64,000 bases of DNA from a bacterium (GTDB lineage Bacteria; Patescibacteriota; Minisyncoccia; Phycocordibacterales; UBA9973), in assembly GCA_021824345.1 (NCBI GenBank), contig JAKAKW010000002.1, positions 86,552 to 150,551 of the forward strand. The letters are read 5' to 3'. Both the position numbers and the translations under genes were made by a program. Every line of letters begins with the position of its first letter. The first letter of the stretch is position 1. Shown piece by piece: positions 2,283-63,026 of the stretch. The notes beneath the pieces are model-generated. The model was given only the letters and a program-made list of their open reading frames with translations. It did no database searches and was not told where the DNA came from.

Positions 2283-4010
2283 ATGAATACTCAAGGAAAA
2301 AATTCCTCCCGAGGCGGGCCGCAAGTCTGCCGCAACTGCCGAAGAGAGTTCGTAATAGAACCTCCTGACTTGAAATTTTACCAAAATATAAAAGTTCCTC
2401 CGCCGACCTGGTGTCCGGAGTGCCGGATGGCCAGGCGTTTTTCATTTCAAAATACCTGGAGCTTATACTGGCGTAATTGCGACAAATGCGGAAAGAAAGC
2501 GCTGTCAACTTATCCGCCGGAAAAGAAAATAATCGCTTACTGTTCCGAGTGCTGGTGGGCGGACGATTGGGACGGCACGGAATACGGCATGGATTACGAT
2601 CCTAAAAAAACGTTTTTCGCGCAACTGACAGAATTGAAAGAGCGCACTCCTTTTATGATGTTGCAAAATGATCATGTCACTATCAAAAATTCCGAATATT
2701 CTTCCTATATTGGCTGGAGCCGCGATTGTTACTTGGTATTTTGGGCCGATTACTGCGACAACGTGTGTTATTCTTCCATTTTAAATGGCTTGCGCTTCAG
2801 TTCCGATTGCCTGCGGGGATTTGATTCAGAGCTCTGCTATGAATCCATCGGCTTTTCCGGCAATTACCGCACTTTCTTTTCCGACGAATGCGACAATTGC
2901 GTGGACGTATGGTTTTCCCGCAATTGTTATGGATGTACCAACTGTATTGCCTGTGTCAATCTGCGCGGGGCCTCCTATTGCATCTTCAATAAGAAATATT
3001 CAAAAAATGAATACGTGGAGGAGGTAAGGAAATTGGGATTAAACTCATGGAAAGCCTTGCGCGAATTGGAGAATAGAGCGCACGCCTTCTGGTTGGAAAG
3101 ACCGTACAGAGAATACAACGGGAACAGCTTGAATACTAATGTTTCGGGAGATTACGTGTACGAATCCAGAAATGCGAAGGATATGTACATAGTAAACGGC
3201 GCGGAAAATTGCCGATGGTGCCAGTTCATCACCGTGAAGCCGGCCAAAGATTGCCGCGACTACTCCGGATGGGGGAATAACACTTCTCTCATATATGAAA
3301 GCATTAATGTGGGAGAGGACAGTTACGGCGTACGTTTTTCCGGCATTTGCTGGGCGGACTGCTTAAACCTTGATTACTGCTACTTTTGCATATCCGCGAA
3401 GAACGCTTTCGGATGCGTGAATCTGAAAAGGAAAAATTACTGCATCCTAAACAAACAGTATCCGAAGGAGGAATTTTTCAAACTGCGCGAAAAAATAATT
3501 GAGGACATGAAGAAAAATCCATATACGGACAATATCGGACGCGAATTTCGATATGGAGAATTCTTTCCGCCGGAATTCAGTCCATATCCGTACAACAAAT
3601 CCAATGCCATGCGCTTTCTGCCAAAAACAAAGAGCCAGGCGCTACGGGAAGGGTACTCCTGGGAAGAAGAGGAAATACATAAATATGACACCACTATCGG
3701 ATCGGCGGATCTGCCGGACAGCTTGGAGAAAACGGATGAATCGGTGCTGGAAGAGGTGATAAAATGTCCGAATTGTCCGCGAGGGTACAAGATCGCCAAA
3801 CTCGAATTAGACCTATTGCGCAAGATGGGCCTGCCTCTTCCGCACGAATGCCCTCGTTGCCGGGAAGAGAAGCGCTTCGCCCGGCTGAACAAGCCGAAAT
3901 TCTTTGAGCGCAAATGCGCAAAGTGCGGGGAAAAGATCAGCACCGCCTTTTCTCCCGACCGTCCGGAGATCGTGTACTGCGAAAAGTGCTACCAAGCCGA
4001 ATTTCTTTAG
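2283..4010 (+). CDS. Third paralog of the Cys-rich zinc-ribbon repeat protein family (575 aa)
   Basis: Same N-terminal motif (CRNCRREFVIEPPDLKFYQNIKVPPPTWCPECRMARR), internal duplicated Cys-rich modules, and C-terminal CPNCPRGYKIAKLELDLLRKMGLPLPHECPRCR ... DRPEIVYCEKCYQAEFL. Own promoter TTGCCT-18-TGGTATAAT at about 2226..2255. Confidence 0.6.
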   Translation: MNTQGKNSSRGGPQVCRNCRREFVIEPPDLKFYQNIKVPPPTWCPECRMARRFSFQNTWSLYWRNCDKCGKKALSTYPPEKKIIAYCSECWWADDWDGTEYGMDYDPKKTFFAQLTELKERTPFMMLQNDHVTIKNSEYSSYIGWSRDCYLVFWADYCDNVCYSSILNGLRFSSDCLRGFDSELCYESIGFSGNYRTFFSDECDNCVDVWFSRNCYGCTNCIACVNLRGASYCIFNKKYSKNEYVEEVRKLGLNSWKALRELENRAHAFWLERPYREYNGNSLNTNVSGDYVYESRNAKDMYIVNGAENCRWCQFITVKPAKDCRDYSGWGNNTSLIYESINVGEDSYGVRFSGICWADCLNLDYCYFCISAKNAFGCVNLKRKNYCILNKQYPKEEFFKLREKIIEDMKKNPYTDNIGREFRYGEFFPPEFSPYPYNKSNAMRFLPKTKSQALREGYSWEEEEIHKYDTTIGSADLPDSLEKTDESVLEEVIKCPNCPRGYKIAKLELDLLRKMGLPLPHECPRCREEKRFARLNKPKFFERKCAKCGEKISTAFSPDRPEIVYCEKCYQAEFL

Positions 4011-57699: not shown

Positions 57700-57786
57700 G
57701 AGCTGTACATTAAAATTCCCTCAAAGGGGAATTAGTATTGCCAAGTCTAGCGTATTTGGGAAGGAAAGTCAATTGTAATAAAATCA

Positions 57787-58184
57787 TGTGGAGATGGGGG
57801 AAATCGAATCCCCGTGCAAGAGGCTGCGGAAGGAAGGTCTACATGCTTAGCGCGCTTTTTGATTTGAGCCGGCGGATTCTTAAGCGAGCCAAATATCCGC
57901 GAGCCGATTCCTTAAGGTTTGGAGAGAGACCAGGAAAAATCTCTTCCTATCCCGATAATGTTACACCTCGCCCAATCTATCGGAAGTTGAAAGGGGAGAC
58001 GCCGGCGTTCTTAAGCGAAAGCCGGAGCGAAAGCGAAGTCCTTCGCACCGAAGTACGGAGAGACCATTGCCATCACCTTGGAAGTCAATTTTGCAATTAA
58101 CTGTTTGGGCGAAGTTTTGCGAGTTTACGCCCATTCTCGGCATGCATTCGGGCCGCCGGCCTATTGTCTATGCCTGGCATCCCC
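57787..58184 (-). ncRNA. ssrA: tmRNA (SsrA), ~398 nt, adjacent to smpB
   Basis: 5' end GGGGAUG and 3' end GGGGAUUCGAUUUCCCCCAUCUCC-A-CA form a tRNA-Ala-like acceptor stem with G3:U wobble and T-arm. An internal reading frame reads GCG AAG GAC UUC GCU UUC GCU CCG GCU UUC GCU UAA (tag (A)KDFAFAPAFA), stop near plus coordinate 58008. Confidence 0.7.
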
Positions 58185-58185
58185 A

Positions 58186-58340
58186 TGCTTGTGGCGTCGA
58201 GGGTTTTGGTATGTTCTTTTACGGGTACGGGATTTTTTCTGCTGAAAAAATCCCCGAAGTTGGCTCGCCGCCGCCTGCCTGCCGGCAGGCAGGCTCGCCA
58301 AACCTCCTCCAAAAACATACCAAAACCCTCGCCTGCCAAC
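58186..58340. repeat. Intergenic element between ssrA and smpB. 17-bp inverted repeats (gagggttttggtatgtt / aacataccaaaaccctc) around the hairpin gggattttttctgctgaaaaaatcccc and GC palindrome gcctgcctgccggcaggcaggc.
   Basis: Shares a 33-nt identical core in reverse orientation with the element at 48097..48216. Confidence 0.6.
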
Positions 58341-58362
58341 TTTATATGTGACGAGTTTTGCG

Positions 58363-58809
58363 TCAATAATCTTTCAAGGTTCTGCGAAGCTCCCGCTCGG
58401 TTTCCCGCTTCTTTATAGTCTCGCGCTTGTCGCGCTTCTTTTTTCCGCGCACCACGGCCATCCCGAGTTTGATCTTCTTGCCTTTATTATACACTGCCAA
58501 AGGCACTATTGTCAAACTTTTGTCCTTTTCGCCGGAGGCCAATTCCATAATCTCTTTCCTGGTGAGAAGAAGCTTTCGGTTGCGCAGAGGATCATAATCG
58601 GCCCCGGCGTTTTTCGGCTGGAAAGGAGTAATGTTCGCGTTTATCAGAAACGCCTCGCCTCCGCGGACAATGACGAAAGAGCCGTCCAGGGACATTTTGC
58701 CCTCGCGGACAGATTTCGCTTCCATGCCTGAGAGCTCAATACCCGCCTCGTATTTATCAAGCATCTCGTATTCAAAGCGCGCTTTTCTGTTTTCCGCATA
58801 ATTTGCCAT
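58363..58809 (-). CDS. smpB: SsrA-binding protein SmpB
   Basis: MANYAENRKARFEYEMLDKYEAGIELSGMEAKSVREGKMSLDGSFV SmpB signature. Confidence 0.9.
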   Translation of the reverse strand: MANYAENRKARFEYEMLDKYEAGIELSGMEAKSVREGKMSLDGSFVIVRGGEAFLINANITPFQPKNAGADYDPLRNRKLLLTRKEIMELASGEKDKSLTIVPLAVYNKGKKIKLGMAVVRGKKKRDKRETIKKRETERELRRTLKDY

Positions 58810-58832: not shown

Positions 58833-58948
58833 AGCCGGAGAAGATATAAATTTATGCGATGGTTTGGCCGAGCTTCCAGCTCCGCAGGAGCAAAATTTTG
58901 GCGAGGAGAGCCGAGGACCTCGCGGAAATTTATATCTTTTCCGGCTTC
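58833..58948. repeat. Intergenic element upstream of ftsH bounded by ~21-bp inverted repeats (agccggagaagatataaattt / aaatttatatcttttccggct, 1 mismatch) with GC-rich interior (ggccgagc motif)
   Basis: Direct inspection. Same architecture as the other IR-flanked elements. Confidence 0.45.
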
Positions 58949-58988
58949 TTTAATTTCATTCGGGGCGTTTTCATGCTATACTCGCAGA

Positions 58989-61900
58989 ATGGATTTCAAT
59001 CTTAGAAACAGCCAGGAGCCGAAAATGAAAGGAAAAAAACCTCCGGAAAGAGGTCCTGGTTTTGCTGGCAGCATCGCCTCGGTGATTCTTATCTTTATGA
59101 TAATCACCGCCATATATCTTTTGATTTCGGACGCTTCCCAGCCGGTTCCCGCCATTCCCATTTCCCAGGTTGCGGAAGATGTTTCTTCCGGCGCGGTGCA
59201 AAAGATAGAAGTGCAGGGGAACGATCTTACGGTCACTTACAAGGACAAGGAAGTGAAAAAATCAAAGAAAGAGACGGAAACTTCCTTAACCGACACTCTG
59301 TCAAACTACGGAGTGAGCAAGCAGGTGCTTGACGCCACCGAGATAGACATTCAAGAACCGGACGGATTCGGGTACTGGGCGATAAACATTCTGCCGTATC
59401 TTCTGCCCATTATCTTCATCGTGATTTTCTTCTGGTACATTTCCCGGCAGGTTAAAGGGGCCGGCATGCAGGCGTTCACCTTCGGCCAGTCCAAGGCGCG
59501 CATTACCGATCCTTCCGACAAGAACAATCGCATCACTTTCAAAGACGTGGCCGGATGCAAAGAAGCGAAAGAAGAACTGAAGGAAATTGTGGATTTTTTG
59601 AAAAACCCCAAAAAGTTCCTGGATATCGGAGCGCGCATACCCAAAGGAGTGATTCTTACGGGAGCGCCCGGAACCGGCAAGTGCGTCAATGGCGATACAT
59701 TGATACAAACATCCAAAGGCCTTGTTGCAATAGAAGATGTGCCGAAATACTTTTCAGTAAATTCAGATAATACAGTGGAAGGGTTAAGAGTGATAACTAT
59801 TGACCCGAAGAACGGGACTTTAAAAACCACGGATGCTTCGCATTGGTATTCTTTAGGGGAGCAAGAAACTGTTGCCATAAAGACGGAATCGGGAATGTTT
59901 TTGGAAGGTACGCCGGAACACCCTATCATCGTAGTTGATAAAGATACAGGCCATTTTGTTTTCAAAAAATTAGCTGATATAACAACCGACGACTGGTGCG
60001 TGGTGGGCTCCCGGACGGAGGTATTCGGAACGCATACAAAAATTCCAGGCCCGGAAACCGCTTATATACTTGGTGTTTTGACGGGTGACGGATGCATGAC
60101 CATTAAAGGCAGAATAGTTCTTTCCACTATTGATAAAGAGATTTTGAGCCGGGTGCAAGATAATGTTAAGAGATTGTTCGGCGAGGAGTTTTCAAAAATT
60201 TCCGCCCATAAATGCGATTATCAGCTTTCAAATAGCAAGGCAAAGAATGCGTTATTGTCTTTTGGACTTTCAGAAACATACGCGAAAAATAAGAGGATTC
60301 TTGAGTGGGTTCGTTTTGCTCCCAAAGAGCACATAAGCAATTTCCTGCAAGGATTGTTTGATACCGATGGCACGGTTGAAAAGAGCGGAAGCGTAAGTTT
60401 GTCCAGCGCCAGCGAACACTTAATAAGAGAAGTGCAATTTATGCTTCTTAATCTCGGCATAGTGACCAGAAGGTATGAGCGCCAGAAGAAATACAACAAT
60501 CAACTCCAATACTACATTGTTATTTATGGAGATTTTGTGCAGTCTTTTCAGAACCAAATAGGGTTTTCAGTTGTCAGGAAAAAAGAAAGATTGGAAAAAA
60601 TTTGCCTCAAACAGCGAAATACAAATGTAAATGTCATACCTTCGCAAGGCAAGTCTATTCACATGGTCTGGAAACAGGCGGTAGCCACCTCAGGAATGGT
60701 TTTTAATAGGGAATTTTATAATCAATCTATTTATAAAAATTTCAAACGATACGTTTCGGGAGAACGGATGCCTTCCCTTAAAGGGATGTCAATATTTCTC
60801 GAAGGAACATCTCGCATTTCACCGTATATAAACGAAATGCCCGAGGTGGCGCATTTGAAAAGCTTGTCTTCCGGTAATTTTTTCTTTAGTAAAATTGATT
60901 CCATTAGCCGAGGCAGGAACAAAGTATATGATCTTACTGTACCGGTAACCCATAATTTTTTGGCCAATGGATTTTTTAATCATAACACCATGCTGGCCAG
61001 GGCCATCGCGGGCGAAGCGAGCGTGCCCTTCTACCATCTTTCCGGTTCGGAATTCGTGGAAATGTTCGTGGGCGTGGGCGCCAGCCGGGTGCGGGATCTT
61101 TTCCGGGTGGCCAAGAAATCCGCTCCGGCCATAATATTCATTGATGAAATTGACGCCATCGGCAGAACCCGCGGAGGGGGATTCGGAGGAAGCAATGACG
61201 AACGCGAGCAGACCTTGAACCAAATTCTGGTGGAAATGGACGGCTTCGAGCCGAACGAGAAGCTGATCGTGATTGCGGCCACCAACCGGCCGGATGTTCT
61301 TGACCCTGCCTTAATACGTCCCGGACGCTTTGACCGCAAAGTGGTGCTGGATCTTCCGGATCGCAACGACCGCGAAGAAATTCTGAAAATTCACGCCCAG
61401 AAAAAGCCCTTGGCGGAAGATGTGAATCTGCATCTTGTCGCCGAGCGTACCCCGGGCTTTTCCGGCGCCGATCTTTACTCTTTAATGAATGAAGGCGCCA
61501 TTCTGGCCGCCCGGGAAAACCGCAAAAAAGTGTTCCAATTTGACCTGATCCGGGCGATTGAAAAAGTAATGCTGGGTCCGGAACGCAAAAGCCACCTGCT
61601 TTCCAAGAAAGAAAAAGAAATTACCGCCTATCATGAAGCCGGGCACGCTATCGTGGCCTCGGTATTGCCTCACGCGGATCCGGTGCACAAAGTTTCCATA
61701 ATCGCCCGCGGACGCGCCGGGGGATATACGCTTAAGCTTCCTCTGGAAGAACGTCGATTGCAATCTCGGAAAGAATTCATTGACGATATCGCCATGTCGC
61801 TCGGAGGATATGCCGCGGAAAAAATGATGTTTGGGGATATTACTACCGGACCGTCCAGCGATCTGCAGATGGCCACGAACCTAGCCCGGGCCATGGTCAC

Positions 61901-62219
61901 TCGCTTCGGCATGTCCGACAGCATCGGCCCGGTCACCTGGGCGGAAGGAGAAGGAAAGCCGGGCTGGGGAGAACTTCGGGAAGATTCCCGTTCGGAAAGC
62001 GTGGCCGCGAAGATTGACGATGAAGTTTCCAGAATCGTGAATGATGGCATAAAAACGGCGCAAAAAGTGCTGAAGGATCACAAGAAAGCCTTCACTGCCA
62101 TTGCCAAGAAGCTTATCGAAGTGGAAACTTTGGAACGGGACGAATATGAAAAAATTCTCATCGCCCACGGCATAGAGCTGAAAAAGAAGGACGAGCCGGA
62201 GGTGGTCATAGAAGGCTAA
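58989..62219 (+). CDS. ftsH: ATP-dependent zinc metalloprotease FtsH, interrupted in-frame by a 435-aa intein within the Walker A motif
   Basis: Two TM helices and periplasmic domain. [12 protein letters not shown] then intein then [18 protein letters not shown]+ second region of homology. HEAGHAIV zinc motif. Start at ATG 58989 (the ORF track begins upstream in the leader). Confidence 0.85.
59682..60986 (+). mobile_element. Intein with LAGLIDADG homing-endonuclease domain inserted between Lys and Thr of the FtsH P-loop (GPPGTGK | T)
   Basis: Begins CVNGDTLI (block A, Cys1). TPEH (block B). Two LAGLIDADG motifs ([24 protein letters not shown]). Ends [21 protein letters not shown] followed by +1 Thr. 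Insert is AT-richer than flanking ftsH. Confidence 0.8.
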
Positions 62220-62351
62220 AAATATCATGGCAAAGCGTGAACTAAAAAAATTGCGATAGAGCTGAGACTTGCCGGACATAGCTACAGCCAGATCAGAGGA
62301 CAAGTAAAAGTAAGTAAAAGCACTTTAAGCTATTGGCTTGCGGATTATCCG

Positions 62352-62888
62352 TTGTCGGAAGAAAGAATAAGAAAACTCAGAGATAATAGTCCCATTAGAA
62401 TTGAGCACTACATAAATACCATGCGGGCAAAACGTGAAGCAAGGTTTGCTTCCGCCTATTCTGAAATTTCAAAAGTTTTAAAAAAGTTTTCTAAGAGAGA
62501 AATAATCATAGCAGGATTCTTTTTGTACTGGGCTGAAGGCAATAAGACAAGAAATGCTTCTTTCGGCCTTACTAATACCGATCCAAATATGTTGAAATTC
62601 TATATTAGATGGATGGAACTTTTAGGCGTAAAGAAAAGCCAGATGAAAGTGCACTTGCATCTTTATTCAGATATGAACATAGAAAAACAGAAAAAATTTT
62701 GGTCCGACACGCTTTCCATTCCTCTTTCTCAATTTCGAAAACCTTATATAAAAAATACCTGTTCTAGCTCCATAACTTATAAAAATGGATTTGGCCAAGG
62801 AACTTGTTCTGTCCTTGTGGAAGGCGCAAGGCTATCCGAAAAAATACTGATGGGAGTAAAATATGTGCAAGAAAATTCATTAATTTAA
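62352..62888 (+). CDS. AT-rich hypothetical protein, probably the downstream part of a frameshifted HTH-domain gene beginning at ATG 62227
   Basis: ORF starts at TTG. The same frame upstream reads IAIELRLAGHSYSQIRGQVKVSKSTLSYWL (helix-turn-helix) but has no ATG. An ATG at 62227 (MAKRELKK) joins this frame by a -1 shift in an A7 run at 62244..62250. Confidence 0.4.
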   Translation: MSEERIRKLRDNSPIRIEHYINTMRAKREARFASAYSEISKVLKKFSKREIIIAGFFLYWAEGNKTRNASFGLTNTDPNMLKFYIRWMELLGVKKSQMKVHLHLYSDMNIEKQKKFWSDTLSIPLSQFRKPYIKNTCSSSITYKNGFGQGTCSVLVEGARLSEKILMGVKYVQENSLI

Positions 62889-62949: not shown

Positions 62950-63023
62950 CCGCCCGTAGCTCAGTTGGTAGAGCAAGCGACTTATACTCGCTGTTAGCCT
63001 TGGTTCGAGTCCAAGCGGGCGGA
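62950..63023 (+). tRNA. tRNA with anticodon TAT (UAU; isoleucine-AUA-decoding type), C1:G72 acceptor, 3' A-CA
   Basis: Manual fold. Acceptor ccgcccg/cgggcgg. U8 A9. D-arm gctc-agttggta-gagc. Anticodon stem agcga/tcgct with loop cTTATAc (U33, A37). T-arm cttgg-ttcgagt-ccaag. 6-nt variable region. Confidence 0.6.
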
Positions 63024-63026
63024 CAA

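Follow-up and report, generated by a model that had tools for sequence, protein, structure and literature searches.

A probable class 1 intein with a nested LAGLIDADG homing endonuclease in the Walker A motif of FtsH in a Patescibacterium

Inteins inserted in the Walker A motif (P-loop) of ATPases are well documented, and the described sites include DnaB site b, MCM site a, RFC, VMA-b and PhoH, among others (PMC8966425 and PMC4760082). At the VMA-b site of the archaeal V-ATPase subunit A, the intein of Thermococcus litoralis (TliVMA, 7qss) is treated as a member with an active endonuclease, and its active-site residues restored cleavage by another intein inserted in an ATPase P-loop, PhoVMA (7qst; PMC8966425). 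In Anaeramoeba, inteins are proposed to have passed from the P-loop of one protein to that of an unrelated one (PMC10710043). FtsH is not named as an intein host in the main text of the survey by Novikova et al. 2016 (PMC4760082). In the literature that we searched, we found no description of an FtsH intein, the papers that we read with both words being concerned with other genes, and no paper on inteins in Patescibacteria. Here, we analyze a 64-kb stretch of patescibacterial DNA (the window, in its whole length) whose single ftsH gene very probably carries, in its Walker A motif, a splicing class 1 intein with a nested two-motif LAGLIDADG homing endonuclease. This type of element is already known; the FtsH Walker A insertion allele is new and uncharacterized.

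The window holds one intein, and no second ftsH was found within its 64 kb. The gene sits in an open reading frame (ORF) at 58854..62219 on the forward strand. Its likely true start is the ATG at 58989, because the N termini of homologs begin there and because an identical protein of 1076 amino acids (P0079) is present in the databases. The precursor scores 750 bits with the equivalog model TIGR01241 (FtsH_fam), for which the cut-off is 600, and it matches the Pfam families FtsH_ext (PF06480), AAA (PF00004), AAA_lid_3 (PF17862) and Peptidase_M41 (PF01434). The host protein is built like an FtsH: a membrane/extracytoplasmic region at the N terminus is followed by an AAA module and by an M41 zinc protease in which the HExxH motif is present as HEAGHA. 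The gene is divided as follows.

58989..62219, forward strand: ftsH precursor gene, 1076 amino acids plus stop, 641 amino acids without the intein
58989..59681, forward strand: N-extein, comprising the FtsH N terminus, the transmembrane/extracytoplasmic part and the start of the AAA module, and ending in GAPGTGK (Walker A up to the Lys)
59682..60986, forward strand: very probable class 1 intein, 1305 nucleotides and 435 amino acids, Cys1 to His434-Asn435, delimited by Pfam and NCBIfam matches, the alignment gap against locus L006 and an AlphaFold2 model
60987..62219, forward strand: C-extein, comprising Thr+1 (60987-60989, the Walker A Thr), the remaining AAA module, the lid and the M41 protease with HEAGHA

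A preliminary description of this DNA had placed an in-frame insert of 435 amino acids at 59682-60986, starting with Cys and ending with His-Asn before a +1 Thr. These limits are correct to the base: the insert is in frame, its first codon is TGC, the last two are CAT AAC, and the next one is ACC. The junction reads GAPGTGK|C...HN|T and splits Walker A between its Lys and its Thr. This position had been given rightly, although the loop is GAPGTGK and not GPPGTGK as written there, a trivial slip. The insert is also AT-richer than the host gene, as had been noticed: its G+C content (GC) is 40.2%, while the N-extein has 49.0%, the C-extein 54.2% and the whole window 47.7%. In a frame of 435 codons with the composition of the insert, about 30 stops are expected and none is present (chance P ~1e−13).

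The comparison with ftsH genes that lack an intein, proposed in the same description, defines the insertion site to the base. The spliced FtsH was used as the query of a search (the extein search), of which we analyzed the best 120 FtsH proteins, with identities of 76% or more and, where a source label is given, mostly assigned to Paceibacterota, Nomurabacteria, Minisyncoccia or Patescibacteria. The insert is carried by 2 of these 120 proteins, the window's own (P0079, 100%) and P0082, and is absent from the other 118. The nearest relatives without it are P0080 (87% identical, 635 amino acids) and P0081 (82%, 641 amino acids). In L006, the locus encoding P0080, the genes follow the order seen in the window (RNase J-like, CofD, L20, L35, IF3, SmpB, ftsH, tRNA-Ile and recG). 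When the two ftsH genes are aligned at the DNA level (78% identity), a single large gap of 1305 bp appears, corresponding exactly to 59682..60986; the only other gap is an indel of 18 nucleotides at the gene's 5' end. In L006, the sequence of the empty site is GGAGCGCCCGGTACCGGCAAG|ACTATGCTGGCTCGGGCG. Once spliced in silico, the resulting protein of 641 amino acids aligns with the FtsH of Thermotoga (7tdo, E = 9.5e−182) with no gap across the junction, where the aligned Thermotoga segment is GPPGTGKTLLARAVAGEA. A conserved non-splicing domain of FtsH, one of two findings that the preliminary description held to be fatal to an intein, is ruled out because the syntenic ftsH has no such segment and 118 of the 120 closest proteins lack it. 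The other, loss of Cys1 or of the terminal Asn, was not observed, both residues being intact.

The insert can be divided into the parts listed below, where the conservation of residues refers to an alignment with 45 relatives and is expressed over 46 sequences.

59682..60041, forward strand: N-terminal HINT half, residues 1-120, with Cys1 of block A at 59682-59684 and Thr77-Pro-Glu-His80 of block B at 59910-59921
60042..60572, forward strand: LAGLIDADG homing-endonuclease core, residues 121-297, based on two PF14528 matches, PF05204 and the structural model
60057-60095, forward strand: first LAGLIDADG motif, ending in LTGDG, with Asp136 at 60087-60089 (kept in 41/46)
60336-60374, forward strand: second LAGLIDADG motif, ending in FDTDG, with Asp229 at 60366-60368 (kept in 43/46)
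60573..60866, forward strand: helical region, residues 298-395, formed by helices in the model and located at the position of the "accessory domain" of endonuclease-carrying inteins
60867..60986, forward strand: C-terminal splicing segment, residues 396-435, with block F Asp417 at 60930-60932 and His424 at 60951-60953, and block G NGFFNHN with Asn435 at 60984-60986

The splicing domain was recognized by Intein_splicing of Pfam (E = 6e−17) and by two NCBIfam models, TIGR01445 (intein_Nterm, residues 1-84) and TIGR01443 (intein_Cterm, residues 414-435), both above their cut-offs. Over its full length, the insert matches the intein parts of the NCBIfam models for intein-containing DnaB and GyrA; no NCBIfam model for an intein-containing FtsH was among the matches. 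Sequence matches in solved structures were to the inteins Pho RadA, Mxe GyrA and PI-PfuI and to V-ATPase inteins. All the residues typical of class 1 splicing are present, that is, Cys1, the TxxH of block B, the Asp and His of block F, the terminal His-Asn and Thr+1. C1, T77 and H80 are kept in 44 or 45 of the 46 sequences, and the whole set formed by C1, T77, H80, D136, D229, D417, H424, H434 and N435 is nearly invariant (41 to 45 of 46 for each residue). The splicing blocks A, B, F and G and the two LAGLIDADG motifs of the preliminary description were thus all recovered, and the suggested comparison with intein and LAGLIDADG profile models gave matches to both. Besides the nucleophile Cys1, the intein has four more Cys residues.

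The endonuclease is matched by LAGLIDADG_3 of Pfam (PF14528) in two stretches (E = 3.5e−26) and also by Hom_end (PF05204), and a catalytic acidic residue, with Gly after it, closes each of the two LAGLIDADG helices. We built an AlphaFold2 model of the intein on the alignment of its relatives, which reached a mean predicted local distance difference test score (pLDDT) of 95.1 and a predicted template modeling score (pTM) of 0.93. The best matches of the model in the PDB, identified with Foldseek, are all endonuclease-carrying inteins: PI-PfuI (E = 2e−24), TliVMA (template modeling [TM] score of 0.71), PhoVMA, PI-PkoII and PI-SceI. The HINT fold is further apparent in matches to the structures of VMA, GyrA, DnaB, RecA and RadA inteins. 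The central part of the model has the pseudo-dimeric LAGLIDADG fold (alpha-beta-beta-alpha-beta-beta-alpha) and aligns to the free-standing enzymes I-DmoI (TMt ~0.7) and I-Tsp061I, and the model also aligns to the endonuclease domains of PI-PfuI and PI-SceI. The helical region that follows (residues 298-395) may be implicated in DNA binding. The endonuclease would be expected to recognize the P-loop site of ftsH, for which the candidate target is GGAGCGCCCGGTACCGGCAAGACTATGCTGGCTCGGGCG, now separated by the intein into two halves.

59661..59681, forward strand: presumed homing site, left half, GGAGCGCCCGGAACCGGCAAG, coding for GAPGTGK
60987..61004, forward strand: presumed homing site, right half, ACCATGCTGGCCAGGGCC, coding for TMLARA

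From these features, and from the standard class 1 pathway, we infer both protein splicing and homing cleavage by the element. FtsH would be made as a precursor of 1076 amino acids whose ATP-binding loop is broken and which would have no ATPase function, since a protein with a split Walker A should be unable to bind ATP properly. Cys1 would attack the Lys-Cys peptide bond to form a thioester with Lys-1, and the hydroxyl of Thr+1 would take over the N-extein. Asn435 would then cyclize, aided by His434, releasing the intein, and an O-to-N shift would rebuild GAPGTGKT in a normal FtsH of 641 amino acids. The freed intein of 435 amino acids could act as a monomeric LAGLIDADG endonuclease, cutting intein-less ftsH at the sequence coding for the P-loop. 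Recombinational repair from an intein-bearing copy would finally copy the element into the cut allele.

The preliminary description regarded Walker A as a recurrent site of intein insertion, which is borne out by the relatives of the element. Among 1.84 billion cluster representatives searched with HMMER, 9497 proteins matched at E ≤ 1e−3 and 282 at E ≤ 1e−30. The best 79 representatives with an aligned N terminus all start with Cys, and 71 of them do so directly after the G-K/R of Walker A. The +1 residue among the best representatives is most often Thr (56/72), followed by Ser (14). The hosts in this wider family include PhoH, DnaB, MutS, DnaX, UvrD-like helicases, ABC ATPases and terminases.

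The same insertion site is also used repeatedly in FtsH itself. A search with the intein as the query revealed this site to be occupied by an intein in at least 13 other FtsH fragments (35 to 77% identity). The counts of this search are lower bounds, since it missed the window's own protein and P0082, both found by the extein search. In all, at least 15 other sequences, falling into approximately 11 clusters at 50% identity, have an FtsH intein at the same site. The proposal of a new FtsH P-loop allele is therefore right in that the allele is uncharacterized, but the allele is not unique to this genome. One of the copies has been deposited at NCBI as a "hypothetical protein" (KKP41937.1) of a Parcubacteria metagenome-assembled genome (MAG). 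The source names that we saw for these genes are either this one or "cell division protease FtsH," and none flags an intein. When one genome per GTDB species was scanned, five loci with an FtsH intein at this site were found in five species of Patescibacteria, labeled Nomurabacteria, Parcubacteria, Sungiibacteriota and Saccharibacteria (twice). The GAPGTGK|C junction is present in the five loci; HN|T can be read in L001, L002 and L005, the contigs of the other two ending inside the intein. All the complete FtsH-site copies seen are full length (427 to 436 amino acids), with no mini-intein among them.

In a neighbor-joining tree of 82 inteins, the 15 FtsH inteins and three from other AAA proteins of PF00004 (one of these hosts is an M41 protease as well) form one clade (bootstrap 83/100). 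The inteins of the window, P0082 and L001 group together in this tree (98/100). The simplest reading is that a member of the Walker A intein family would have invaded the AAA/FtsH Walker A once, long ago, and would have spread afterwards within FtsH.

Some of the FtsH proteins have more than one intein. In L005 (4465-10293 of CAYNAP010000017.1, a MAG labeled Saccharibacteria), ftsH is a single ORF of 1943 amino acids with three endonuclease-carrying inteins, located in Walker A (GK|C...HN|T), at GVGA|S...HN|SRVRDLF and in the sensor-1 region (VIAA|S...HN|TNRPD). The second and third of these inteins resemble each other. P0200 and P0207 (1494-1499 amino acids) have two inteins each in FtsH. In L003 (JACOZA010000018.1, a Sungiibacteriota MAG), the FtsH Walker A intein has an in-frame TGA at 3245-3247, where it reads KL*EWGL and its relatives KLLEWGL; this could be the result of decay, a sequencing error or recoding.

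To assess selection on the endonuclease, the window was set beside P0082/L010 and L001, its nearest intein-bearing relatives. In these comparisons the synonymous sites have reached saturation, the proportion of synonymous differences (pS) being 0.75-0.88 overall and 0.80-0.81 in the endonuclease core. Because of this saturation no dN/dS ratio can be quoted, and the proportion of nonsynonymous differences (pN) was set against the saturated pS instead. It amounts to 0.20-0.24 in the endonuclease core, 0.18-0.21 in the splicing domain and 0.22-0.31 in the variable N-terminal part of FtsH. The endonuclease domain is thus under purifying selection and not decaying, since its pN is low relative to the saturated pS and on a par with that of the splicing domain. 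To judge by its sequence, the endonuclease is, on balance, probably active at present. The lower GC of the intein was considered as a sign of recent foreign import and rejected, because intein GC follows host GC, and does not exceed that of the C-extein, in all hosts examined (36% in a locus of 41%, 37/42, 51/55 and 50/51). This tracking indicates that a lower GC is a general property of a less constrained segment.

Several observations nevertheless weigh against an element that splices and homes actively. In the intein, even the nearest relatives that carry one share no more than 64-69% identity, which, together with the saturation of synonymous sites, leaves no sign of recent mobility. The divergence of the intein also roughly tracks that of the exteins (64% identity in the intein and 66% in the N-extein between the window and L001; 69% for P0082), and this tracking, like that of GC, would be as compatible with a long vertical descent as with homing. 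The family is not free of decay, given the in-frame TGA of L003, and Thr is a less reactive +1 nucleophile than Cys or Ser, although 56 of 72 relatives have it. The intein could be competent for splicing while its endonuclease no longer drives homing, being a vertically inherited passenger of ftsH whose endonuclease domain is kept for folding or another role. We consider this possible but rather doubtful. It agrees with both kinds of tracking and with the fact that the intein searches found no near-identical copy in a distantly related host, and it has a documented parallel in PhoVMA, a P-loop intein with a degenerate endonuclease of intact fold (PMC8966425). It accounts less well for the two catalytic aspartates, which are kept here and in 41 to 43 of the 46 sequences, for an endonuclease core as constrained as the splicing domain, or for the uniformly full-length FtsH-site copies, none of them reduced to a mini-intein. 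Moreover, to explain why the intein is present in only 2 of 120 close FtsH proteins, one must assume either numerous precise losses or its gain through homing.

It is improbable, though conceivable by analogy with other inteins, that the element has been co-opted as a conditional switch activating FtsH by splicing in response to a signal such as redox, temperature or substrate. With Walker A interrupted, the precursor must be inactive, and the intein offers four Cys residues beyond its catalytic one. Conditional splicing is documented for other inteins of ATPase domains, e.g., Pho RadA and mycobacterial DnaB (PMC4513877, PMC6195587 and PMC5790916). Yet nothing in the sequence data favors regulation, and the intein must be dispensable for FtsH function, since 118 of the 120 close relatives do without it. 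An extended form of this idea is just as much a long shot: in a Patescibacterium with a reduced genome, the Walker A intein might be a post-translational gate keeping the membrane-anchored precursor inactive until a signal (e.g., Cys1 redox) is received, and an FtsH with two or three inteins (Walker A, GVGA|S and sensor-1) might be a multi-gated protease and a hotspot for AAA-specific inteins moving between paralogous ATPase loops. Finally, we rejected as extremely improbable a dead remnant, a non-splicing inserted domain or an assembly artifact, in which ftsH would be a pseudogene or a chimera. Chimeras can arise in metagenome assemblies and the L003 member of the family has its in-frame stop, but here the 435 codons are open against a chance of ~1e−13, all the catalytic residues are intact, and the exteins are 100% FtsH-like and contiguous after removal of the insert. 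In addition, the identical protein P0079 was assembled on 12 contigs, there is no second ftsH in the window, and nearly all FtsH proteins lack the segment. A splicing class 1 intein with a nested homing endonuclease remains the reading that we favor.

The surroundings of ftsH showed other features. Directly upstream, between infC and smpB, is a tmRNA gene (57786-58184, reverse strand; 112.5 bits with Rfam). The ORFs at 57738-58418 on both strands are artifacts of this gene, and the public record calls a gene of 73 amino acids over the same region. Just 3' of ftsH, three related genomes have a tRNA-Ile with the anticodon UAU (62950-63024 on the forward strand of the window, 7930-8004 in L006 and 4901-4975 in L001). 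A UAU tRNA-Ile is uncommon, as AUA is read in most bacteria by a CAU tRNA modified with lysidine. Between ftsH and this tRNA gene, the window has an AT-rich region (62227-62888, forward strand, 34-38% GC) with an ORF of 178 amino acids, absent from the same position in L006 and L001. The ORF belongs to a large unnamed family (233+ hits) of proteins of ~220 amino acids from Paceibacterota/Nomurabacteria with an N-terminal helix-turn-helix (HTH_23) domain. The HTH part is in frame upstream and the ATG at 62227 is out of frame; the run of seven A at 62244-62250 would need to be of eight to restore a full-length protein of the HTH_23 family. An AlphaFold2 model of the 178-amino-acid protein (pLDDT of 85) had no significant match in the PDB, and we rejected the protein as a LAGLIDADG enzyme despite its "LAGLFLYWAEG" motif. 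The interval between ftsH and recG contains three small genes (VKOR and two unknowns) in the close relative L006/L007/L008 and only this ORF in the window. With such differences in gene content, the interval is variable between otherwise syntenic genomes.

These results add FtsH, an essential membrane AAA protease, to the hosts of Walker A inteins, and point to a distinct lineage of FtsH/AAA inteins that retains its endonuclease across several groups of Patescibacteria. The understanding of inteins is unchanged by the finding, which would not surprise a specialist. Precursors this long (more than 1000 amino acids, and 1943 in the one that has three inteins) may cause errors in gene calling, orthology assignment and domain statistics. 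The element may also be of use as a new LAGLIDADG enzyme with a candidate target of ~40 bp and as a new Cys1/Thr+1 splicing domain. The intein-bearing locus and the syntenic locus with the empty site, from samples with adjacent ENA accession numbers, make a natural pair for the study of homing in uncultured bacteria. With this clean empty-site partner, the intact endonuclease and the relatives with several inteins, FtsH provides a tidy system for homing and splicing in Patescibacteria.

Among known inteins, TliVMA is the best whole-chain structural match to the model of the FtsH intein. Both are inserted in the P-loop of an ATPase, as is PhoVMA, both combine HINT, a LAGLIDADG endonuclease and an accessory region, and they are of similar size (429 amino acids for TliVMA, 435 for the FtsH intein; PMC8966425). 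They differ in host, an archaeal V-ATPase for the former and a bacterial AAA protease for the latter, and share only ~20% of sequence identity. The prototype endonuclease inteins PI-PfuI (ribonucleotide reductase of Pyrococcus furiosus, 1dq3) and PI-SceI (yeast VMA1) have the same domain arrangement and both LAGLIDADG helices. However, they occupy other hosts and sites, neither of them at the Lys|Thr of Walker A, have other extra DNA-binding regions, and are 12-19% identical to the FtsH intein. The best sequence match among solved structures is the Pho RadA intein (2lqm/4e2t, E = 4.7e−9), with the same TP[ES]HP in block B and the same blocks F and G; unlike the FtsH intein, it is an archaeal mini-intein without an endonuclease, and its splicing is conditional (PMC4513877). 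The sequence relatives of the FtsH intein are the bacterial Walker A inteins of PhoH, DnaB, MutS, DnaX, UvrD-like, ABC and terminase proteins, which are 26-37% identical to it along their whole length. The G-K|C...H-N|T/S junction and the endonuclease are the same in both, but the hosts are different, and the FtsH/AAA-hosted copies form a clade of their own (83/100), apart from these other P-loop inteins.

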